DNA of 64,000 bases from a virus: the IMG/VR virus record IMGVR_UViG_3300017971_000283, positions 5,527 to 69,526 of that record; one strand, given 5' to 3'. The notes under the pieces were generated by a model, which saw nothing but the letters and a program-made list of their open reading frames with translations, had not been told where the DNA came from and did not search any database. Position 1 is the first letter of the stretch. Every line of letters starts with the position of its first letter. The translations under genes and the position numbers were made by a program. Below, one piece after another: positions 1 through 50,162 of the stretch.

Positions 1-3000
1 ATTGATTAGCAAGAGCAGAAGCATATTCATCGGGTAATTTACCCATTCTATCTAGAGCTTGTTCATTAAAAGTATCATTGATATCATTAATTCCATTTTT
101 ATAGCTAGCTTCGATCATAGCATACCAATGCATATCATCAGTAATTTCTGTTTCTTTTAATCTGGAGGCAAACCCTTTATCTCTACTCCAAGATTGATCT
201 TCCATATAAGTTTGGACATCTTCTTGTTTTCCTAAGTCTCCAAATCGATAAAAATTTTCTTTATTTAATCCAAAAGCATCACCTATAAAAGAATTTTTTC
301 CAAGTATTGCTGATGTTCCTAAAAGTCCTGATGTAGAAAGTAGTTTTCCAAAACCACCTAATTCGTCTGATGCCCACTTAGAAAGTAATGCTCCACCTGG
401 ATCAGTCCATTCGGCAACAGCAGCACCTCCTGATTTCCATCTTCCCTCAACATCTCCACTTTTCATTGCTGCTGCAAATTGCTGACCTCCTGTCCTATAA
501 TTCTCACCAAATAATTTTTGACTCGCATAAACCATTGCAGGATCAGCAGAATAATCACCAGTACTTACATCTCCAACCTCTACCCATTTGCCGCCTGATA
601 CCATACCTCCCTCAGTTCTTTCAGTCATACCTCTACCGGCTTGCCAACCGACATTAACAAGACTCCCAACCCATCCCATTTGACCAAGACCTTCTGCAAC
701 TTTATCTAATTTTTTTTGAGTTTCCGTTTGTGCTGCTCCCTCAATTCTAAATCTATATGAAAAATGTTCTGCTATATCTGCAAAAGCACCTTTATTTGCA
801 ATGAGAAATTCTTTCATTTCTCCCATTGAAAGCCCATCTTTAAAAGCACCACCAAGTTTCCCGATTAATGACGTAAAGTTTTCTTTTAAATTTTCATCAA
901 GATCACTTAAAAAAGTGTCCATTAATAATTCAATAGTTGGCCCATATCTTTTTTGTCCCTCTAATCCTTCAATTCTCCATTCTCCCTTTTGTCTAACAGC
1001 TTGTTTTTCAGGGGAATCTCCTCGACCATATAAATTATTAAGTTCTTCTTCAAGTTGCCCCTTTAACCCTTCAACATAAGAGTCAATTTCGTTACCATCT
1101 AAAATTCCACCTCTAAAACTTTTTTTAGCTTTTTCAAGTTCTTCTTTATCTTTTTTTGCCCTTTCCTCATCTTCAAAAAGAATCATTTGCGCTCTTTTTG
1201 AAGCTTCTTCTTTTCCTCCCATTAATGGATCTTCTTTTACTCCCTTTTCATATTTTTTCATTAATTTTTCTTGTTCTTTTAAAGCCTTTTCCCTTGCCCT
1301 TACTTCATGATCAAGTTGCTTATCAACTATTGTCATATGTTTGTCATAATATAAATCCCAAAGGGCATCCCAGTCTTGGGCATATTGTTCTTGATCAGTA
1401 AACCATCTGTCAAGATTATCCAATTCCTTTTCATATTTATTCATACCCATTTGAGCTATTTCAATATTTAATTTATCATTTATTTCTTTTTTCTTTTTAT
1501 TTTCCTTTTCAGCAATTTTAATTAATTCTTTTGAAAGTTTTTCTTCTCTTATTTTTTTTTCTTTTACTGCTTTTTCTTCTATTTCTTTTTGTTTTTTTAT
1601 AGATTCCGATAATAACTTATCAGATTTTTCTTTTGCCTTTGCTCTAGCTTCTTCAAGTGTCATTACTTTTTTTACAGAGTCACCCTTTTTAAACATTGCT
1701 TCTGCTTCTTTCATACTTGATTCATAAGTTCTTTTATTCAAATCAAGCTCTTTTCTTTTTTGCTCATCAAGTTTTTTTAAGTTTTCTAAATATTGTTTTG
1801 TTGCATTTTCATTTATTCCCATTCTTTCTTTTTCAGCTTTTATTGTTGCTTCAGCTTTTTGTTTGATTTCTTCTTTTGTTCTTTTTGATTCCTCTCTTAA
1901 TTTTCTTGTGACATCGAGGAAACTTTCACTGCCTCCAATGGCGTCTTTCATCGCCCCTGAAAAACCCTTTAAACTTTTAGCTAAATCATCTTGTCCAATA
2001 AAACTTAATGCTTTGGCAAGTGTATTTACAAAAGTTGCCATATTTTCCAATATAGTATCGAAAAAACCAAGAAAAACGGATTTCATTCCTTCAACTGTTA
2101 CAGCACCTATATATTTGATCGATTCCCAAAAAGAAGCAAATGAGGCAGATGCACCATGAGTTTTTTCAATAATATATTCAGCAAAACCTTCCATCCCATA
2201 ATTAATTGTTTCAAAAGCCTTTTTCCCGGAATATTCAACTTCAATCCATGCTTTGGAAAAAGAATTAATTATTTCAATCATTGTTGCTCTTACACCTTCA
2301 ACATTTTCATCTAGCCATCTTCCTAATTGAAATCCGGCTACTGCTGCCATTAAAACACCAAGGGCAACCTGGATCATTGTGATTGATCCAGCGGCAACTT
2401 GAGCCCTTACACTATTTGTAGCCAGTACTTTATTAAAAGAGCTAAAAAGACCTGTTCCGGTAGCTACAGAAACATTATTAGCTTGAATAGCCGTATTATA
2501 TAACCATGTTGCTGCTGTTGTTGCTGCTGTAATAGTTTTTAATGTCGTCATTATTGCTATATAGGCCAAAACTCCTTGGCCTAATTTAACAAAAAAATCT
2601 GCAAGTTTTAAAATATTATCAGCATGATCTTTAATAAAACTTGCAGTATCTTTTAATGCCCCATAGATTGAGGCCTTATACTCATCAAAAACATTGATTG
2701 CTTGGTCTTGTAAAACTGAACTCAATTCTTTAAAAGCACCAGAAACAGTTGAAGACATTATACCGGCAAGCTCTTCAGTTTCACCACCAACATTATTAAG
2801 TTTTTCTTTTAAATCATCATATGTAGACAAGCTGTCTTTAATAATTAAAGCACTTGAAACCTGTTCTCTTCCAAATGCTTTTTCCATTTCTGTTGCTGTC
2901 CATCCAGCTTCAGATGCTTTTTCAAAAACTAATCTTAACTTATCTTGAGATGAATTAAGCTCATCAGTTGAAATACCAAGCATACCGGCAGCTTTCCCGG

Positions 3001-3958
3001 TACTTAGCATAATACCTTTCAACATATTACCTGCTTGACTGGCTTTGATACCACCATTGGCCATAGTGCCTAAGTATGCTGAAAGTGATTCAACTTCAAT
3101 ACCCATACCCTTTGCTACTGGTGCAGCATATTTAAAGGCTTCACCAAGCATATTGATATCTGTATTTGCTCTTGTACTCGTACTAACTAAAATATCAGTA
3201 AATCTTGAAAGGTCATTTACACCCAATCCCATTGCTGTCATAGAATCGGTTACAATATCAGAAGCCCTACCAAGTTCAAGTTCACCGGCAGTTGCAAGAT
3301 TTAAAATTTTAGGTAATGATGCTATTGAAGTTGCACTATCCCAACCGGCCAAAGCCATATATTTCAACGCTGTTCCTGCTTCTGTAGCACTAAATTTCGT
3401 CGTACTTCCTGCCTCTCTTGCTGCTTTTTGTAAGTCTTTAAATGCCTGCCCACCACCTTCAACACTCATATTGATATCAGACATAATACCGCCAACAGTA
3501 GTCATAGTCTGCTGGAAGGCTGAACCAATACTTAAAATTTCTTTGACCATATATTGTGCTGAAAATCCAGCAGCAAACCCCATCACCATACTTTTAAAAG
3601 AGGCTTTTATTTTATCAAATGATTTGCTTGTAGATGTGGCTTGGCTTTTAATTTTTTCAAAAGAAGAAGTAATGGTTTTTGTACCTCTTTCAATATTTGC
3701 AGTATCTAATTGAGGTCTTTTAATTTTTTCAAGTGAGGTTTGAGTTTTTATAGCACTTTTTTTAATTTGATCAAAAGAAGAAGTAACAATTTTCGTATTG
3801 GATTGAACTTTTGCAGTGTCTACTGAAGGGTCAATTTTATCAAAAGTTTTTTGCGTAGAATCAGCATCTTTCTGAATTTTACTTAAAGATTCAGAAATTA
3901 CTTTTTGACCTTTTACAAAATCAGAAGTATCTAGACTTACTTTAATTGGAGAGGGCAT
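1..3958 (-). CDS. Tail tape measure protein (TP901-type); 3' end lies outside the window
   Basis: ATG at 3956-3958 after AAGGA. Manual translation gives MPSPIKVSLDT...AAREAGSTTKFSATEAGTALKYMALAGW...ILNLATAGELELGRASDIVTD...MLGEAFKYAAPVAK, the TP901 TMP core. The frame is still open at the left edge, which explains its absence from the ORF track. Confidence 0.93.
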   Translation of the reverse strand, partial: MPSPIKVSLDTSDFVKGQKVISESLSKIQKDADSTQKTFDKIDPSVDTAKVQSNTKIVTSSFDQIKKSAIKTQTSLEKIKRPQLDTANIERGTKTITSSFEKIKSQATSTSKSFDKIKASFKSMVMGFAAGFSAQYMVKEILSIGSAFQQTMTTVGGIMSDINMSVEGGGQAFKDLQKAAREAGSTTKFSATEAGTALKYMALAGWDSATSIASLPKILNLATAGELELGRASDIVTDSMTAMGLGVNDLSRFTDILVSTSTRANTDINMLGEAFKYAAPVAKGMGIEVESLSAYLGTMANGGIKASQAGNMLKGIMLSTGKAAGMLGISTDELNSSQDKLRLVFEKASEAGWTATEMEKAFGREQVSSALIIKDSLSTYDDLKEKLNNVGGETEELAGIMSSTVSGAFKELSSVLQDQAINVFDEYKASIYGALKDTASFIKDHADNILKLADFFVKLGQGVLAYIAIMTTLKTITAATTAATWLYNTAIQANNVSVATGTGLFSSFNKVLATNSVRAQVAAGSITMIQVALGVLMAAVAGFQLGRWLDENVEGVRATMIEIINSFSKAWIEVEYSGKKAFETINYGMEGFAEYIIEKTHGASASFASFWESIKYIGAVTVEGMKSVFLGFFDTILENMATFVNTLAKALSFIGQDDLAKSLKGFSGAMKDAIGGSESFLDVTRKLREESKRTKEEIKQKAEATIKAEKERMGINENATKQYLENLKKLDEQKRKELDLNKRTYESSMKEAEAMFKKGDSVKKVMTLEEARAKAKEKSDKLLSESIKKQKEIEEKAVKEKKIREEKLSKELIKIAEKENKKKKEINDKLNIEIAQMGMNKYEKELDNLDRWFTDQEQYAQDWDALWDLYYDKHMTIVDKQLDHEVRAREKALKEQEKLMKKYEKGVKEDPLMGGKEEASKRAQMILFEDEERAKKDKEELEKAKKSFRGGILDGNEIDSYVEGLKGQLEEELNNLYGRGDSPEKQAVRQKGEWRIEGLEGQKRYGPTIELLMDTFLSDLDENLKENFTSLIGKLGGAFKDGLSMGEMKEFLIANKGAFADIAEHFSYRFRIEGAAQTETQKKLDKVAEGLGQMGWVGSLVNVGWQAGRGMTERTEGGMVSGGKWVEVGDVSTGDYSADPAMVYASQKLFGENYRTGGQQFAAAMKSGDVEGRWKSGGAAVAEWTDPGGALLSKWASDELGGFGKLLSTSGLLGTSAILGKNSFIGDAFGLNKENFYRFGDLGKQEDVQTYMEDQSWSRDKGFASRLKETEITDDMHWYAMIEASYKNGINDINDTFNEQALDRMGKLPDEYASALANQ

Positions 3959-4004
3959 ATCCGATCCTTATCGAATGAATATGACCCTCTCATTTTGGGG
4001 TTCA

Positions 4005-4370
4005 TTAAGTAGTTTTACTTGCTTGCCATTCCATGTGAACATTATCTAATGCTTTCACGAAACGACGAATTTTTTGTCTTTCTTCAAAATCCATTATTTG
4101 GTTCTCATCCAAATATCCGGTGATAGTTTGATAATCAATAGTTGAGGCTGAAAAGCCATCGCCGGTTTTATATAGACATAGTTCGCAATATATTTTGTAA
4201 ATATGTTGTACTCTTTCAAAATCTTGTTTAAGAGGTAATCTATCAACTTTCTTTTTACAGAGTCCATGTCCTTCATTTGCTTTTTTGATCCATTCTTGTA
4301 AGCCGCCAAAAGTATCTTCACCGGTTTTTTTATTTTTAATTTCTAAAATTACTCTGTAATAATCAGTGAG
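4005..4370 (-). CDS. Tail assembly chaperone extension (gpT-like), in frame with the upstream chaperone across a TGA
   Basis: 121 open codons LTDYYRVILE...STIDYQTITGYLDENQIMDFEERQKIRRFVKALDNVHMEWQASKTT*. It has no Met near its start and lies directly before the TMP gene. Confidence 0.75.
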   Translation of the reverse strand, partial: LTDYYRVILEIKNKKTGEDTFGGLQEWIKKANEGHGLCKKKVDRLPLKQDFERVQHIYKIYCELCLYKTGDGFSASTIDYQTITGYLDENQIMDFEERQKIRRFVKALDNVHMEWQASKTT

Positions 4371-4868
4371 TCAAGATTCTTCAAAATTATCTTTCTGAAT
4401 TTGAAAAATTTCTCTTTCAAGACTCATACTCAAAACAAATTCTTTAAATGCTTCAAGTTCAGGATCAGAAAGCCATTCATAGGCAGTTTTTACAGAGTAA
4501 GGAACCCAAGCATCAGGATTAGTAATTGTTTTTTTTGTAAAACTTTCACTTTCATCTTCAATAAAAAGTCGATTATAAATTTCCTCATGATTATCGGATG
4601 GCATATTTTCCCAATTCAAAATAATATGGGTTGCCGTTGCTTTATTTATATTTTCATTTACTACACTGTCAGGAATACTTTGTCCGAACCTAAGAGTTTT
4701 TAGATAAGGTTTGTTTAATTTTTTTACATAATCCTCATAATTTTTATTCCCATGCTTTGCAATTAGCACCTTGCTTCCATATTCTTCCATACCTGGAACC
4801 GGAACCCAAACGCCTTTTTCTGCCATTTTAAGATCATGACCCATTACTTTTTTGAGAGGATTTGCCAT
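4371..4868 (-). CDS. Tail assembly chaperone (gpG-like)
   Basis: Lies between the tail tube and TMP genes. True start MANPLKK follows AAGGAG. Contains GVWV, ILNWEN and PYS motifs typical of this chaperone class. Confidence 0.8.
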   Translation of the reverse strand: MANPLKKVMGHDLKMAEKGVWVPVPGMEEYGSKVLIAKHGNKNYEDYVKKLNKPYLKTLRFGQSIPDSVVNENINKATATHIILNWENMPSDNHEEIYNRLFIEDESESFTKKTITNPDAWVPYSVKTAYEWLSDPELEAFKEFVLSMSLEREIFQIQKDNFEES

Positions 4869-4941
4869 TGTTAATCTCCTTATTTTTTCTTTTTGATTTA
4901 GATTTAATAAAAATAATACTGTTAATAAAAAAAATATTTTA

Positions 4942-4996
4942 AAAAATGGACAGTGATAGTTAATTAAAAAAATATCTTCTATCACTGTCTATTTTT
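4942..4996 (-). terminator. Stem-loop after tail tube gene
   Basis: AAAATGGACAGTGATAG...CTATCACTGTCTATTTT inverted repeat followed by a U-run on the minus strand. Confidence 0.6.
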
Positions 4997-5000
4997 CCCT

Positions 5001-6383
5001 TTAATTACTTTTCTGAAACATAATCTGATAGTCATTTGTAGCTGAAACGCTTGCCTTCCAGGTCATGTTTTGCATAACATCAGCATTAACTCCTGTAGCT
5101 TGCCCACCAGGATTTTGCTGAATTTTTAGTCTTGGAATATATACTGCAATACTTTCGCCATCATTCCCAACAGACCTTACGGAAATTGAAAGTGCAGTAT
5201 TATTAATAAATTTTTCATAATATGTTTGACCATCAAAAAACATATTGAGATTACCAGTAATAGCAGAAAAACCAAACCCTACACCGGCATTACCTAACAC
5301 TCCAATACCAGACTGTCCTCTTGCATTATTGTTTAAAGTAAAGTTAAACTCTGAAATCAGAGTAGTGCCAAAAACAACTGGCGTATTGTCAATACTTAAA
5401 CTTGCAACATCTGATGTTGCATTCAAGGATTCATTAGTAGGCGCAGCAACAAGAGTACTATGAAAGGCTGAAGTATCAACATCAGTCGATACAAGATCAG
5501 CACCAATAAACTCCATACTCCCAGTAATAATAGCTTTACTTGTAAAAGTAAGAGTCATTTGACTTGGAGTCATTCCTCTAAAAAGAGTATATGCCCCAAC
5601 ATCATTATTAATTCGCTCAATACTAAAACTCTTTTTTGTTACTCCATCTTTCAAAAATGCAAATGGTACAAGATATCCGCTTGCAGCAACTTCATCGGTC
5701 AATGTTTCTTCTACTGTCAAATCAGTTGCCGTAACAGCAGATACAGTGACAACTTTATTATTAGTTGAAGTTGTGAATCCAACTAAAGTAATACACATTC
5801 CAACTTCAACTAGTGTTGTAAAATCATAAAGTGCTGCACTATTAATTTTCCCCGAAGCAATAGAAAGGTCACCCGGATCAATTACCCATCTTACATTTCC
5901 ATCAACAGTTTCAGTTGCAAGCGTATCATTCATTGTAAGTACAGTATCAGTCAATGAAAGAATTTCAAGAGAACCGGTATTTAGTGTTGAGCCTACAATT
6001 TGGACAAATTCACCGGCAGTAAATCTTTTTGTAAGATCAGTTACGCCAGCAATTTCAATTGTATCTGCTGTTACAGTACTTGTGACAGATCCCTGTGCTT
6101 TCCCATAAAAAGAATGAGCAAAAACACCTTCCAAAAGATCTTCATTCAAATTCTCAGTTGAAAGTTCAAAACTAACTGAACCTGATGGATTAGCTCCTAC
6201 AACAACCGCATCAAGACTTTTTCTATCACTCCTGATAGTATTTGAATCAGTTGTTTCAACGCCATGAGAAAGGCTTTCAGATGTAATACCGATTGATTTC
6301 ATTGTAGGTGTAGTTGGCAAAACACCAAAAGTAGTTTCTTTAATAACTGCAATATCAATTTGATTAGTTTCTGCAAAAGACAT
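5001..6383 (-). CDS. Major tail tube protein with internal accessory domains
   Basis: 460 aa. N-terminal ETTFG..P / SNTIRSDR / GSVSFEL and C-terminal FTLNNN / ITGNL.MFF / IPRLK motifs, strong AGGAGG SD, and position in the tail cluster. Confidence 0.8.
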   Translation of the reverse strand: MSFAETNQIDIAVIKETTFGVLPTTPTMKSIGITSESLSHGVETTDSNTIRSDRKSLDAVVVGANPSGSVSFELSTENLNEDLLEGVFAHSFYGKAQGSVTSTVTADTIEIAGVTDLTKRFTAGEFVQIVGSTLNTGSLEILSLTDTVLTMNDTLATETVDGNVRWVIDPGDLSIASGKINSAALYDFTTLVEVGMCITLVGFTTSTNNKVVTVSAVTATDLTVEETLTDEVAASGYLVPFAFLKDGVTKKSFSIERINNDVGAYTLFRGMTPSQMTLTFTSKAIITGSMEFIGADLVSTDVDTSAFHSTLVAAPTNESLNATSDVASLSIDNTPVVFGTTLISEFNFTLNNNARGQSGIGVLGNAGVGFGFSAITGNLNMFFDGQTYYEKFINNTALSISVRSVGNDGESIAVYIPRLKIQQNPGGQATGVNADVMQNMTWKASVSATNDYQIMFQKSN

Positions 6384-8062: not shown

Positions 8063-10435
8063 TTATGTTTCACCTAAATATTCAACTTTTAAATTGCCAT
8101 ATGCAACAGTGAAATTAATTGATCCGGCATTATCATGTCTAGCTCTTATATCAAGATCACTTGATGTTGTTACATCTATTATACCACTCATACTCATAGA
8201 TCCAATATCGTTTGCTGTTGAAATTTTCCTTTTCCAATGAATTTGATCTTGTTCAACCCCACCAAGAAAAGCGGATGCTAAAAATACAACATTAGCAGTT
8301 CCAGATGATCCCGATATCGAACAAACTACAGAATACCTACCCGGTTTTGTAATTGTAATTTTATTATTTGAGGCATCTGCTGTAATATTATTTGATTCGC
8401 CATTATTTGACCATGCCGTTAATTTAGTATATGTCGCACCAGTAGGGATACTTTGGGCAGTACTATTGTCATGGGTATAAATTTCAGCAAATGTACCGGG
8501 ATACGATATCTCACCTCCACTTGGAAGTATACTTAAATTTCCATCACTATCTACTTCAAAGTCAGTATAATCAACTGATAAAGTATTTGTTAATCTTAAT
8601 TGAGGATCGGTATCATTTACAATATTTAAAAAATCTGTGATATCAACTTGTATTTCTCCAGAAGCCTCTGTAATCCTTATTCCTTCAACTCCACCAGCAA
8701 TTAAAGATAATTGATCAGCACCCGCACGACCCATACCAGTATCAAAATCATTAGTAAATAAATGAACAGGTTTGGTAGCATTTGAACTCAATGCTGTTAT
8801 TGCAGCTCCACTACTACTACCTCCCAATAAATAGTATCCTTGTTCAAAAAGAAATCTCTGATACCCATTTAACGAAATACCAATTTTATTTGCTGCCGGT
8901 TGATAAAATCCTGTATTGTCATTGAAAAAAGATATTGATGGATTAGTAGCAGAACCAAGTGGGAAAAATACAGTATTTCCACTTGGAAGTATATTTAAAT
9001 TTCCATTGCTATCTACTTCAAAATCAGTATAGTCAGTTAATAAAGTATTTGTTATTCTCAATTGAGGATCGGTATCATCAACAACTTCAAATTTTCTTGC
9101 AGGGGAATAAGTATTTACTCCTGTATTACCAGCAAAATAATTCTTGTCATTAGAACCAGATTGATAAATACCATAAGCATCACTTATCGTATACATATTT
9201 GACTCTGGAATATTAAGTCCAGAATAACGAGTTACTGATCCAAGATAAATATACGGTGGAAATGCTCTAATTGCTGCTGCATCTACAATTGGATTTACTT
9301 CTGAACGACTAACATCCAATCGACCACCAATGCCAGTAGCTTCCTGCGTAGTTCCTTCAGAATTATTTTTCTGAAATACCCCAATAATACCAGCAGGACC
9401 AATGGTTGTATTAGTTGATACTGCTGTCAAATCATTGTTGGTTTGTACACTTATAAATCCCAAAATACTAAAATATGATGCATCTGAAGAAGATGTTGGT
9501 TGTATAGTTTTGAAAGAGCCAAATGAGTAAGTAAGTCCAGTATTTAAAATATCTGTATCTGCTATATGTAATCTATCTGAAGATGGAGATTGCGTACCAA
9601 TGGATAACCTTTCTGGTATATATACTTCTCCACTACTTGGAAGTATATTCAAATCTCCACCGCTATCTACTTCAAAATCAGTATAGCTTACAGCATCAAC
9701 ATTCGTTAATCTTAATTGAGGGATAAAATTATCAACAACTTCAAATTTTCTATTAGGCGTTTCAATTCCTATACCTAAAAATTTATTTGTATTGTCCCAA
9801 AATAAATCGGATTTACTTATTGGTGACCAAATACTTGTAGTTGCATTCCAATAATTTAATTGGCCTTGGTCTGTTCCATCTTCGATATTTCCACTCCCAC
9901 CACCAACCGGGACACCATTAATTTCAAGATTTTTTGTTGTATTATTATAAGATACTTCATTTAAAACATATCTACTTAAAGCTATATCCCACCAAGGAAT
10001 CGCTCCTTGAAAATACGTATCAGTTGGAGGAGGCACAATGCCTTGTGGAGAATCGCCCTGCTTTCTTATTTGAAAGGTGATTAAGGCCCCATAAGGGTCT
10101 TCAGTCATCTCATCTTCAATAACCCATTGTTGGTTATTATCATCGAACCAATCACCTTTTTTAGGATTGACTGCAAGACCATTATATACAAAATCTTTTT
10201 CAAAACATATTACTTTTCTATCAGATTGTAATATCTCATTGTTTTGTTTTTCTTCTATCGAAAATTCATCAGGAATAAGTCTGACACCTGGTATTTTTGC
10301 TGCCTGTACTGTTGAAGTACCGGTTTCAGGATCATAAACATTACCTATTAATTGAAAAAAACTGACGGTCTTTACAGCATCGCCAGCAATCCCAATTCCA
10401 ACCTCAATAAGGTTTTCAATTTCAGTAATATTCAT
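8063..10435 (-). CDS. Head-closure/head-tail joining domain fused to a repetitive fibre
   Basis: N-terminal ~125 aa (VYDPETG, ILQSDRKVI, DPYGALITFQIRK) resembles head-closure proteins. The remainder has three PQLR(L/I)TN....YTDFEVDS.G.L.ILPS.G repeats, GIG..P motifs and a beta-rich C-terminus. Confidence 0.65.
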   Translation of the reverse strand: MNITEIENLIEVGIGIAGDAVKTVSFFQLIGNVYDPETGTSTVQAAKIPGVRLIPDEFSIEEKQNNEILQSDRKVICFEKDFVYNGLAVNPKKGDWFDDNNQQWVIEDEMTEDPYGALITFQIRKQGDSPQGIVPPPTDTYFQGAIPWWDIALSRYVLNEVSYNNTTKNLEINGVPVGGGSGNIEDGTDQGQLNYWNATTSIWSPISKSDLFWDNTNKFLGIGIETPNRKFEVVDNFIPQLRLTNVDAVSYTDFEVDSGGDLNILPSSGEVYIPERLSIGTQSPSSDRLHIADTDILNTGLTYSFGSFKTIQPTSSSDASYFSILGFISVQTNNDLTAVSTNTTIGPAGIIGVFQKNNSEGTTQEATGIGGRLDVSRSEVNPIVDAAAIRAFPPYIYLGSVTRYSGLNIPESNMYTISDAYGIYQSGSNDKNYFAGNTGVNTYSPARKFEVVDDTDPQLRITNTLLTDYTDFEVDSNGNLNILPSGNTVFFPLGSATNPSISFFNDNTGFYQPAANKIGISLNGYQRFLFEQGYYLLGGSSSGAAITALSSNATKPVHLFTNDFDTGMGRAGADQLSLIAGGVEGIRITEASGEIQVDITDFLNIVNDTDPQLRLTNTLSVDYTDFEVDSDGNLSILPSGGEISYPGTFAEIYTHDNSTAQSIPTGATYTKLTAWSNNGESNNITADASNNKITITKPGRYSVVCSISGSSGTANVVFLASAFLGGVEQDQIHWKRKISTANDIGSMSMSGIIDVTTSSDLDIRARHDNAGSINFTVAYGNLKVEYLGET

Positions 10436-15887: not shown

Positions 15888-16286
15888 TTATTTATTAATT
15901 TCGCCTTTTGTACTATCTTTTGCTGAACTTTTACCAAATATTCTAACTGCCCAATAAACCCATAATGCTCTTATTTTCCACATTCCATATTGAATACATT
16001 CTTTATACAAAAATTTATCAGCTTTTATTCTTAAACTTAATGGCAATTTTTTCTCTCTAAATAATTGATAAAAAGCATCATGAACAAGACTTGCTTTTAT
16101 AAATGCCTCAGTATCAATAGTTGGACCACTTGGGCCATCCCAAGAATATCCCTGAAAAATTACCATATTTCCGGTTTTATTTAAACCAATAAACTTATTG
16201 TTAGCAGAAAAACCGGTTATATTTGTTTCAACAAAATAGTTTTCAGTTAGCTGATACTTATATTTCCTGAGTTTCCTGTATTTCAT
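15888..16286 (-). CDS. DUF1353-like protein
   Basis: GYSWDGPS...ASLVHDAFYQ...AD..L...G...RA...YWAVR.FG. Confidence 0.7.
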   Translation of the reverse strand: MKYRKLRKYKYQLTENYFVETNITGFSANNKFIGLNKTGNMVIFQGYSWDGPSGPTIDTEAFIKASLVHDAFYQLFREKKLPLSLRIKADKFLYKECIQYGMWKIRALWVYWAVRIFGKSSAKDSTKGEINK

Positions 16287-47393: not shown

Positions 47394-50003
47394 TTACCAC
47401 CTATCTGATCCAAACACGTTAAAATCGAAATAAGCTGTATTACCATCTTCCATATCTTTAAAAATCTTTTCAACTTTTTCAGGAATGCTTAAAACTTCTA
47501 ATTTGAAAAAACCTTTTGTTTTTATTGGTGTTGAAATTTTTTCAGCCATAGCGGGACCAATACCTTTTATTTCAATGAACGGTGGAATAATATAATCATT
47601 TTCAATTTTCCAATCATAAGGTAATCCATCTTTTAATGTAGGTGGTTTAAATTCAAGACCACCTTTTATTGATGAATCTATTATTGTTTGTTTTCCTTTT
47701 TTTCCTGCAAACTTTAATGAAGCTAAAATAAACTCATGTGGAAAATAAACCTTTAGCCATGCACACCAATAAGAAAGTACAGAGTATCCAACAGAATGGG
47801 ATAAATTAAATGAATAAGCAGCATGTTCTTCAAAGCCCTTCCAAAGCTCTATAGCTTCTTTTTTTGATAATGTTTTTTCATTCTTACAACCTAAAATAAA
47901 TAATTCTTTATACTTCTCAAATGCTCCTACATCACTTTTTTTAGCAATAATTTTTCTAATTCGATCCGCTGTTGTATAGGGCAATCCTGCAAGCCTGTTA
48001 ATACACTGCATCACTTGTTCTTGATACGCAATACATCCATAAGTATCTTTTGTTATTTCTTCATAAATGGGATGAAGTTTTTTCCATTTTTTTGAAAATT
48101 TTCTTTTAATATATTCTTTAGTCATACCTGAATTCATTGGTCCCGGTCTTACTAAGGCAGTTGTCGCACACATTTCTTTAAAATTATTAACTTGTAAATC
48201 TTTAGAAAGTTTTGTCATGGGCCAAGTATTAAATTGAAAAATTCCTGAAGTATCACCTTTCGCAATTATTCTAAAAATATTTTTATCTTTCAAATCAAGA
48301 GTTGTTAAATCAATTTTATTACCTGATTTTTCTTCAATTAAATTTAAACAATGTTTTATTGTATCCAAGGTATTTAGTGCAAGAATATCAAGTTTTAACA
48401 AACCAAGATATTCACAATCATCTTTATCCCAATTTAACTTTGTCACCCCTTCACTTTCTGATATTACACCTTGGCCAGATAAAGGATTCTTTGATATTAT
48501 TACTCCTGCTGCGTGTTTTGTATATGATCTTATTCTTCCTCTAATTTTATAAGCATAATCAAGATATTCTTTATATTCATTATAAAAATCTTTTGCGATT
48601 TTCTTTATATCATCAAGTTCTTCAATTTGAGTGCTAATAAAATCTGATTGTTTTGGAGAACATAAAGAAAACACTCTACAAATATCCTTAAACGCTGCTC
48701 GATCTTGCATTTTTTGAAAACTTGCTACAACTGCAACTTTATCCTTACCATATTTATTTGATAAGTATTCAAAAATATCTCCTATTCTTAATGATTCGAA
48801 ATCAATATCAATATCCGGATAATCATTCCTATCTTCTGCAATAAATCTTGAAAATAAAAGATCATGTTTTATAGGATTTATTTGAGTTATTCCTAAAATA
48901 TAAGCAACTAAAGAACCGCCCACGCTTCCTCTACCGGGTGAAGTTAAAATATTCTTTTCTTTACAAAATTGAAGTAGATCATATGTGATTAAAAAATAAT
49001 CACATAAACCTTTACTTAAAATGATTCTTTTCTCTTCTTTTATTCTATCTTTATATACTTGAATATTATTTATAAATTCAGCTTGTTTTTCCCTCATACC
49101 TTTTGCTATCAAAATATTAAAAGCCTTTTCACCTGTAAAATTTATTGTACTTATTTCAACTTTTGGTAAGGAAATATTTTTTTCTTTTAATTCAAAATTT
49201 ACCTTATTTTCTATAATACTATTATTTTTAAACATCTGAAAAATTTCAGACTTAGAAAAAATACCTTGTCTTAAAAAACTTAAAAACATTTCCTTTCCTG
49301 ATTTTAACCAATGAGTCCTTTCATCAAATTTCCATCTGTTAGGATTTGCCCAGGTATCACTTCTTTGAATACAAAGAAGTATTTCATGAACTTTTACATC
49401 TTCTTTTAAGACATAATGACAATCATTTGTTCCTATCAATGAAAGATTAAATCTTTTTTGTATTTGTTTTATTTTCAAATTCAAATCTTTTTGAATTTGA
49501 AGTTCCAAAGGCATTACTTCTAAAAATAAATCGTCCTTAAAAGTATTAATTAATTGAGGTAAGTATTCTTCATATAAATTATCATCTTGCAAAAATGAAG
49601 CAATACAGCCGGATAAAATAATTAAGCCCTTTGAATGTTTTTGAAGTATATCAAAATCAATTCTTGGTTTTCTATAATACCCATCAAGATTCGCAATTGA
49701 TAATATTTCACAAAGATTTTTATATCCATATTCATTTTTAACTAGTAATGTTATATGATGTCTTTTTTCTTTCTTTTTAATTAAATGATTTTTTACAAGA
49801 TAAGCTTCGCATCCAAAAATAGGTCTTATACCTTCTTTTTTACAGGCTTTATGAAATCTTACATGACCATCAATATTTCCATGATCTGTTATCGCAAGAA
49901 CCTTTTGATCAAGCTCTTTTGCTCTTTTTACATACTCATCAACTTTACCAAGACCATCTAAAGGAGAGTATTCTGTATGAACATGAAAATGAGTGAAATT
50001 CAT
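47394..50003 (-). CDS. dnaE: DNA polymerase III alpha subunit (C-terminally short)
   Basis: PHP domain HFHVHTEYSPLDG / AITDHG, GRGSVGGSLVAY.LGIT, catalytic PDIDIDF, HAAGVII, KLDILAL, YSFNLSHS. Confidence 0.95.
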   Translation of the reverse strand: MNFTHFHVHTEYSPLDGLGKVDEYVKRAKELDQKVLAITDHGNIDGHVRFHKACKKEGIRPIFGCEAYLVKNHLIKKKEKRHHITLLVKNEYGYKNLCEILSIANLDGYYRKPRIDFDILQKHSKGLIILSGCIASFLQDDNLYEEYLPQLINTFKDDLFLEVMPLELQIQKDLNLKIKQIQKRFNLSLIGTNDCHYVLKEDVKVHEILLCIQRSDTWANPNRWKFDERTHWLKSGKEMFLSFLRQGIFSKSEIFQMFKNNSIIENKVNFELKEKNISLPKVEISTINFTGEKAFNILIAKGMREKQAEFINNIQVYKDRIKEEKRIILSKGLCDYFLITYDLLQFCKEKNILTSPGRGSVGGSLVAYILGITQINPIKHDLLFSRFIAEDRNDYPDIDIDFESLRIGDIFEYLSNKYGKDKVAVVASFQKMQDRAAFKDICRVFSLCSPKQSDFISTQIEELDDIKKIAKDFYNEYKEYLDYAYKIRGRIRSYTKHAAGVIISKNPLSGQGVISESEGVTKLNWDKDDCEYLGLLKLDILALNTLDTIKHCLNLIEEKSGNKIDLTTLDLKDKNIFRIIAKGDTSGIFQFNTWPMTKLSKDLQVNNFKEMCATTALVRPGPMNSGMTKEYIKRKFSKKWKKLHPIYEEITKDTYGCIAYQEQVMQCINRLAGLPYTTADRIRKIIAKKSDVGAFEKYKELFILGCKNEKTLSKKEAIELWKGFEEHAAYSFNLSHSVGYSVLSYWCAWLKVYFPHEFILASLKFAGKKGKQTIIDSSIKGGLEFKPPTLKDGLPYDWKIENDYIIPPFIEIKGIGPAMAEKISTPIKTKGFFKLEVLSIPEKVEKIFKDMEDGNTAYFDFNVFGSDRW

Positions 50004-50162
50004 ATTTAGTCCTTTTATCATTTTTTCAAATTCTTTATAAGAGAAACTAATTCATGCGACCAGTTTGATGGTTTCCTTTTTCCCGTTTTTCAAAATCTTA
50101 TCACCCTTTTTCCCGATCTTAATCTTCCCGGCGCATGGCATGGCAGGTTTAAGTGTTTTCCA

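Follow-up and report, generated by a model that had tools for sequence, protein, structure and literature searches.

How does a tail assembly chaperone reach its long form when T does not lie in a shifted frame behind G? In lambda, G and GT are required at about 30:1, with G and the G part of GT binding the tape measure protein and T binding the tube protein, and the G-T frameshift is widely conserved in long-tailed phages; this is the account given in the passages of PMC5009743 that treat these proteins. Here, G and T are an in-frame pair parted only by UGA-C, with neither a slippery site nor an independent start for T. The long form is probably made by occasional readthrough, because T lies directly behind an in-frame UGA and not in a shifted frame. 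We give a probability of a little under 60% to the reading that low-level UGA readthrough would make GT in place of a frameshift, in one lineage whose relatives in the collections searched are at most 38% identical to it.

The G/T pair and its setting

The window, which is the whole stretch of DNA that was analysed, comprises 64 kb of a linear, 69.5-kb IMG/VR virus record with an estimated completeness of 77%. It has a G+C content of about 30% and carries nearly all of its genes on the minus strand. The G/T pair belongs to the last part of a structural module that is ordinary for a siphovirus and runs in the order terminase, portal, head morphogenesis protein, scaffold, major head protein, adaptors, tail terminator, tail tube, chaperone and tape measure. 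As in lambda-like pairs, G and T are flanked by the genes for the tube and the tape measure, the latter starting at 3958. The features of this region are:

5001 to 6383, minus strand: tail tube gene, 460 aa, directly upstream of the chaperone (PF18906 Phage_tube_2, E=1.7e-34; phrog_290, E=1.3e-49).
4943 to 4995, minus strand: stable hairpin plus U-run separating the tube stop from the G start (-16.9 kcal/mol, z=-5.18; none of 200 shuffles folded as well).
4876 to 4881, minus strand: Shine-Dalgarno sequence AAGGAG, 7 nt upstream of the G start (sequence; anti-SD duplex of -9.3 kcal/mol).
4374 to 4868, minus strand: G, tail assembly chaperone, 165 codons (phrog_8233, E=1.7e-14; phrog_313, E=3e-7; family HMM, E=4.1e-43).
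4371 to 4373, minus strand: in-frame UGA followed by C at 4370, the proposed readthrough site (sequence; unchanged in Logan contigs).
4005 to 4370, minus strand: T-domain extension, open in the frame of G for 121 codons up to the TAA at 4007-4005 (T profile, phrog_3817, P0109 and codon usage).
2 to 3958, minus strand: tape measure gene, 2245 aa over the whole record, of which 1319 aa fall within the window (phrog_1533, E=2.8e-62; PF10145, E=2.3e-34).

The alignment of the upstream ORF, G, with homologues of 130-165 aa spans their whole length, and the stop of G falls at the usual C-terminus of the family. The predicted start is the ATG at 4868-4866 (minus strand), which yields 165 aa and is favoured over a GTG at 4985 by the homologue alignment and by the AAGGAG at 4881-4876. 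The anti-SD duplex energy for G (-9.3 kcal/mol) can be compared with -6.0 for the tape measure gene and with a median of -5.9 over 53 gene starts. The database gene call, P0001, is 204 aa long and begins at the GTG, which is located within the hairpin at 4943-4995. This record also carries a precomputed Pfam label, PF27119, that is absent from the local Pfam search results.

The hairpin itself looks like a terminator or attenuator and probably reduces how strongly the chaperone and tape measure genes are expressed compared with the tube gene. A simple terminator scan did not list it, probably because the composition of its loop and stem falls outside the rules of the scan.

Three other genes in the window deserve a brief description. 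The first encodes a 790-aa protein (8063-10435, minus strand) whose N-terminus matches head-closure proteins (Hc1) and which also matches a tail-fibre family weakly and, below the Pfam cutoff, the BclA C-terminal domain; for a neck protein it is unusually long, and it may bear a fibre or whisker. The second, an ORF of 132 aa (15888-16286, minus strand), has the portal gene on one side and a DNA methyltransferase gene on the other and matches phrog_1158, labelled 'tail assembly chaperone', with E=4e-22. It is distant from the tail genes, and either the label or the function is doubtful. The third is a DnaE-like DNA polymerase (47394-50021, minus strand) that is about 35% identical to the enzymes of large Streptomyces phages. 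A search with this polymerase gave no close phage relative, and matches to Streptomyces phages at about 35% are uninformative on the host.

At the junction, G ends ...GAA GAA TCT TGA (4373-4371) and the same frame goes on with CTC ACT GAT TAT.... The earlier note had read the locus in this way, with 121 codons running to the TAA at 4005, and both sequence and translation confirm it; the translation also contains the peptide that the note quoted. The base after the UGA, at position +4, is C. Also borne out is the statement that no X_XXY_YYZ site precedes the stop, as the last 39 codons of G contain no such heptamer in frame. The shifted frames are closed: the -1 frame has just 5 open codons across the junction, between TGA 4383-4381 and TGA 4365-4363, and the +1 frame meets a stop 7 codons beyond that of G. 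No stable RNA structure was found 3' of the UGA (z = 0.37, 0.15 and 0.68).

Two other routes around the stop were considered and rejected. The sequence T_AAT_TTT occurs 9 nt before the G stop, where a subgroup of relatives (L009-L011) has the heptamer A_AAT_TTG; a -1 slip there would at once meet the -1-frame TGA at 4383-4381. Stop-hopping would require a nearby in-frame Ser codon on which the P-site tRNA could land. There is none, and landing on the out-of-frame UCA would put the ribosome in the +1 frame, which is closed.

The extension as a T domain

The sequence past the UGA is a true T domain, as judged by homology and by coding statistics. A profile built from the shifted-frame T ORFs of 63 distinct relatives matches the extension with E=6e-11, over residues 21-119 of 121. 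When this profile was run against the six-frame translation of the window (910 open segments, each 30 aa or longer), the frame-0 extension was the sole match. In addition, there is a weak match to phrog_3817, 'tail chaperonin' (E=5.7e-5), and the stand-alone T-like protein P0109 is 44% identical to the extension over 50 aa. A codon-usage score trained on 37 long genes gives the extension +29.0 in frame 0 vs -30.1 and -73.2 in the other frames, and the same is seen for its first 20 codons (+7.2 vs -9.3 and -20.0). The T region also holds an open stretch of 82 codons in the +1 frame (4097-4342, minus strand), which starts past the G stop. This stretch has no route from G and a negative codon-usage score, and it is taken as chance.

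Homology begins at the first codon after the UGA, and the gpT-like character ascribed to the extension in the earlier note holds. The junction here, ...EES-UGA-LTDYYRVILEI, can be set against the predicted -1 products of relatives, in which ...[G/K]N is followed by L[T/I]xxLxWxLxWG (in L073, VKN is followed by LTDVLRFSL). The similarity starts directly behind the UGA, and the readthrough product would be collinear with the fusions of the relatives, plus one residue.

An alternative is that T is translated by itself, from a non-canonical start or by reinitiation after the UGA, and acts unfused to G. The candidate starts would be ATT codons at positions 8 and 11 of the extension, and the alignment to the profile proper begins only at residue 21. 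Upstream of the two ATTs, however, there is no SD-like pairing (+0.4 and -2.4 kcal/mol vs the median of -5.9), and nowhere upstream of extension codons 1-24 is pairing stronger than -3.0 kcal/mol. The first ATG, GTG or TTG does not appear until codon 87, which agrees with the earlier statement that T has no start of its own near its beginning. Against separate translation stand also the similarity to relatives from the first codon past the stop (LTD...) and the fact that in 66 of 66 relatives T overlaps G and has no independent route. Finally, T is tethered to the tape measure protein in lambda by way of the G part of GT, according to the passages of PMC5009743 on that phage. Separate translation is thus very unlikely.

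Frames and slippery sites among relatives

An exhaustive HMMER search with the readthrough product had 162 protein matches at E<=1e-3, almost all of which are G-only and about 130-165 aa long. The closest homologue of G other than itself is 38% identical. Both halves were present in one ORF in none of the 150 matches listed (of 162), and a GN/KN footprint of the heptamer lies within the last 30 residues in 115 of those 150. Close relatives were absent from scans of viral contigs with G or with the tube protein, and a word-indexed protein search returned the phage's own protein alone. One family member, in the record of Caulobacter phage BL57, is annotated as a two-piece join.

A family alignment search then provided the loci themselves: 107 IMG/VR loci were confirmed and 80 kept, two GenBank phages were added, and two loci cut before the G stop were dropped. 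Among the 80 relatives' loci, 78 have the T-length ORF in the -1 frame, where it overlaps the end of G, and two (L035 and L045) have it in +1. Removal of duplicates left 63 distinct loci, comprising 28 with A_AAA_AAC, 28 with G_GGA_AAC, 2 with A_AAA_AAG, 1 with A_AAT_TTG and 4 that lack a canonical heptamer. The latter are the two +1 loci together with L027 and L084, which have T in the -1 frame and the non-canonical sites G_GAA_AAC and G_GAA_AAA, respectively, at the end of G. The G stop directly follows the heptamer in 25 of the 59 heptamer loci. Three more distinct loci came from other queries (L085; L086, which equals L087; and L088), each with A_AAA_AAC plus stop and with T in -1. This makes 66 distinct relatives, with T in the -1 frame in 64, in +1 in 2 and in frame 0 in none. 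Canonical heptamers are located at or near the G stop in 62 of them (31 A_AAA_AAC, 28 G_GGA_AAC, 2 A_AAA_AAG and 1 A_AAT_TTG).

The earlier note had named slippery sites in relatives as grounds for giving up readthrough. Such sites are there in 62 of 66 relatives, as just described. They are not taken as refuting readthrough because the present locus is without a site and has T in a different frame.

Only one other homologue, P0023, has an acidic tail and is without the K/N footprint. Its gene was not found in viral contigs, and one metagenome scan gave only a 38%-identical, ordinary -1 locus (L085). With P0109 as the query, three loci were recovered and all are of the ordinary -1 type.

The two +1 loci have AAA_AGY just before the G stop (L035, about 2840-3270, and L045, about 2830-3300, both from IMG/VR). 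The sites read ...AAT AAA AGT TAA and ...AAA AGC GAG TGA, and about a dozen of the protein matches end in ...KS.... Together, these loci and proteins suggest a subgroup that uses +1 (or -2) frameshifting. A further observation concerns P0002, a protein of 2180 aa in which 23 separate stretches match residues ~58-92 of G (E=2.4e-15). It seems to contain a repeated motif resembling part of the chaperone.

The position of this G within the family was explored using a quick maximum-likelihood tree of 64 G sequences with a midpoint root. The branch that leads to this G is long, at 1.2 changes per column, and arises among -1 members whose grouping is unresolved. Most forks are unsupported; L035 and L045 form a supported pair. 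The frame-0 state is most simply derived from a frameshifting ancestor, of which the tree is no proof. To reach frame 0, loss of the heptamer and a net +1 change of frame were both required, and it is therefore not a one-step lesion. So far, the in-frame UGA arrangement is a singleton, known from one metagenomic lineage.

A rival explanation is a defective or transient genotype, or an error in the consensus. On that account an indel or substitution would have put T in frame 0 behind a stop, and GT would be absent or too rare and have no programmed role. It is favoured by the single lineage, by a layout common to no relative and by the missing stimulatory RNA structure 3' of the UGA. The sequence of the locus speaks against it: the heptamer is absent and not displaced, the shifted frames are closed, and several changes separate the locus from any canonical one. 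With the heptamer gone and both shifted frames closed, it is therefore no one-step mutant of a canonical locus. In addition, T has stayed open for 121 codons at 30% G+C, with frame-0 codon usage and full-length homology to the profile. The other ORFs of the record are densely packed and intact, which counts against a decaying element.

The error variant of this explanation can be set against the contigs. Logan contigs from two runs span 3800-5100 at a word depth of ~13 and carry the same TGA, with no difference from the window, and thus two assemblies agree. As these contigs are identical in extent and coordinates, they may be the source data of the window and perhaps one data set, so they count as a second assembly and not as independent sampling. 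Overall, a defective genotype or a consensus error is unlikely.

Possible decoding of the in-frame UGA

If the UGA is decoded, the use of this codon elsewhere in the record should be informative. The survey of stops covered 68 minus-strand ORFs of at least 80 aa ending at a stop, of which 46 end in TAA, 17 in TGA and 5 in TAG. Only the stop of G precedes a long in-frame open stretch that is without its own ATG, namely the 121 codons of T. Three other long stretches past a stop (206, 319 and 791 codons) are each the next gene with its own ATG. The remaining ones are 72 codons or less, and the 16 other TGA stops are followed by 0-36 open codons. By this survey, the profile match and the codon usage, the open extension behind G goes beyond chance. 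The tape measure ORF contains no TGA in 2245 codons.

These counts bear first on the idea that UGA is a sense codon here, either for selenocysteine or in a reassigned code (table 4 or 25). Low G+C, as found in many UGA-reassigned lineages, is in its favour. Against this, the Trp codons in G are all TGG, and a TGA such as that of G occurs once in 68 ORFs. As 16 other ORFs end at UGA, at plausible gene ends, and the 2245-aa tape measure is free of TGA, the codon is not reassigned. For selenocysteine, the locus has no Rfam match (the best, to an unrelated miRNA model, has E = 0.49) and no stable hairpin 3' of the UGA, hence no SECIS. Both forms of this idea are highly improbable.

A dedicated opal suppressor tRNA is a different proposal. 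It would decode the UGA efficiently and come from the missing 23% of the genome or from the host, and GT could then be plentiful or turned on at a late stage. With the record at 77% completeness, there is room for such a gene. A suppressor would also be tolerable, since the other UGA-ended ORFs would gain just 0-36 residues. However, ARAGORN found no tRNA or tmRNA genes in the window or in the whole 69.5-kb record, and the genome has a single in-frame UGA of this kind. A further argument against it is that an excess of GT is harmful in lambda. For these reasons a suppressor is distinctly unlikely.

The preferred reading remains low-level readthrough without special machinery, through which both forms of the chaperone would be made from one reading frame. 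Most ribosomes would terminate at UGA-C and release G. A small fraction, perhaps a few percent, would decode the UGA using a near-cognate tRNA and continue into T, giving G-X-T. By analogy with other cases of bacterial UGA readthrough, the decoding tRNA is probably tRNA-Trp. On the lambda model, the G part would form a coat on the tape measure protein, and recruitment of the tube protein would fall to the rare T part. The G:GT ratio would then be set by the leakiness of termination and not by a -1 slip. Of the earlier proposal that readthrough sets this ratio, the anatomy (no slippery site, no start) holds, whereas the occurrence of readthrough, its level and the inserted residue are what we infer from the sequence. 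After every computational test that was run, readthrough remains the simplest way to make GT.

About 30 G per GT is within the natural range of UGA leakiness, a range that may not be that of the host of this phage. In some bacteria UGA is read by tRNA-Trp at a few percent, and readthrough of UGA is favoured when the penultimate residue is acidic. For a mammalian system, UGA_C has been described as a weaker terminator. In bacteria, UGA followed by C is reported to be the weakest termination signal, a finding attributed to Poole et al. in 1995. If the points regarding UGA-C, tRNA-Trp and the acidic residue hold, basal leakiness alone could give a lambda-like ratio. This would fit with the lack of RNA structure.

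The broader claim goes a step further: that a siphovirus lineage has replaced the near-universal G-T frameshift by programmed UGA readthrough, with the efficiency of termination at UGA-C alone setting the ratio and without a slippery site or RNA structure. From the sequence evidence, we judge this to be slightly better than an even bet.

Comparison with known systems shows what is shared and what is not. The first is gpG/gpGT of lambda and the G-T proteins of other long-tailed phages (Levin 1993, Xu 2004 and 2013, as summarised in the relevant passages of PMC5009743), which have the same order of tube, G, T and tape measure. As in lambda, T has no start of its own and the long form includes the whole of G; a role for a many-to-one G:GT ratio in tail assembly is presumed here. 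Unlike lambda and its kin, in which T is in the -1 frame overlapping G and is reached by a -1 slip on a heptamer, the locus lacks a heptamer and has T in frame 0, with a UGA between G and T.

The second is the protein's own family, which includes the 'pre-tape measure chaperone' of Caulobacter phage BL57, Mesorhizobium phage Cp1R7A-A1 and 64 distinct metagenomic loci. Shared with this family are the matches to the G HMM (E=4e-43) and the T HMM (E=6e-11) and the position beside a tube gene of the T5-pb6 type. The family differs in having A_AAA_AAC or G_GGA_AAC, often abutting the G stop, or in two cases +1 with AAA_AGY, and its members have at most 38% identity to this G.

Two further parallels come from outside the tailed phages. 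In Q-beta, a leaky UGA ends the abundant coat protein and yields the minor, extended A1 protein, which is required for infectivity and needs no special tRNA. The likeness is one in-frame UGA followed by a coding extension, which here is 121 codons with homology and frame-0 codon usage. Unlike this phage, Q-beta is an RNA phage. Its A1 is a component of the virion instead of a chaperone for assembly, and there is no relationship between the proteins. For retroviral Gag-Pol, the part of PMC5009743 that discusses it contrasts the frameshift of HIV with the in-frame UAG readthrough of MuLV. The resemblance is that related viruses answer the need for an extended fusion at a fixed, low ratio either by frameshifting or by readthrough. 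Gag-Pol differs in being eukaryotic, and MuLV needs a downstream pseudoknot, of which none was found here.

The earlier note had supposed that readthrough was an undescribed route for tail chaperones. A full-text literature search, which had most subscription journals outside it, gave no report of stop-codon readthrough in a tail assembly chaperone, and the passages of the PRFect paper on tail chaperone genes consider -1 and +1 shifts only. The G/GT system and bacterial UGA readthrough are both known, and it is their combination that appears to be new.

The G-T frameshift is a textbook case of conserved recoding in phages, and annotation pipelines seek slippery sites only. If the readthrough reading is true, this would be the first case of readthrough in a tail chaperone and a dsDNA-phage parallel to the retroviral Gag-Pol alternatives. 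Annotators would be warned that a 'missing' T ORF may sit in frame past a stop, and the recoding field would have a simple bacterial readthrough signal to test. Taken with the -1 and +1 members, a single protein family would display three interchangeable recoding solutions. What is conserved would then be the low ratio of the fused form and not the frameshift, and tail assembly in this phage would be tied to the RF2 activity and tRNA pool of its host.
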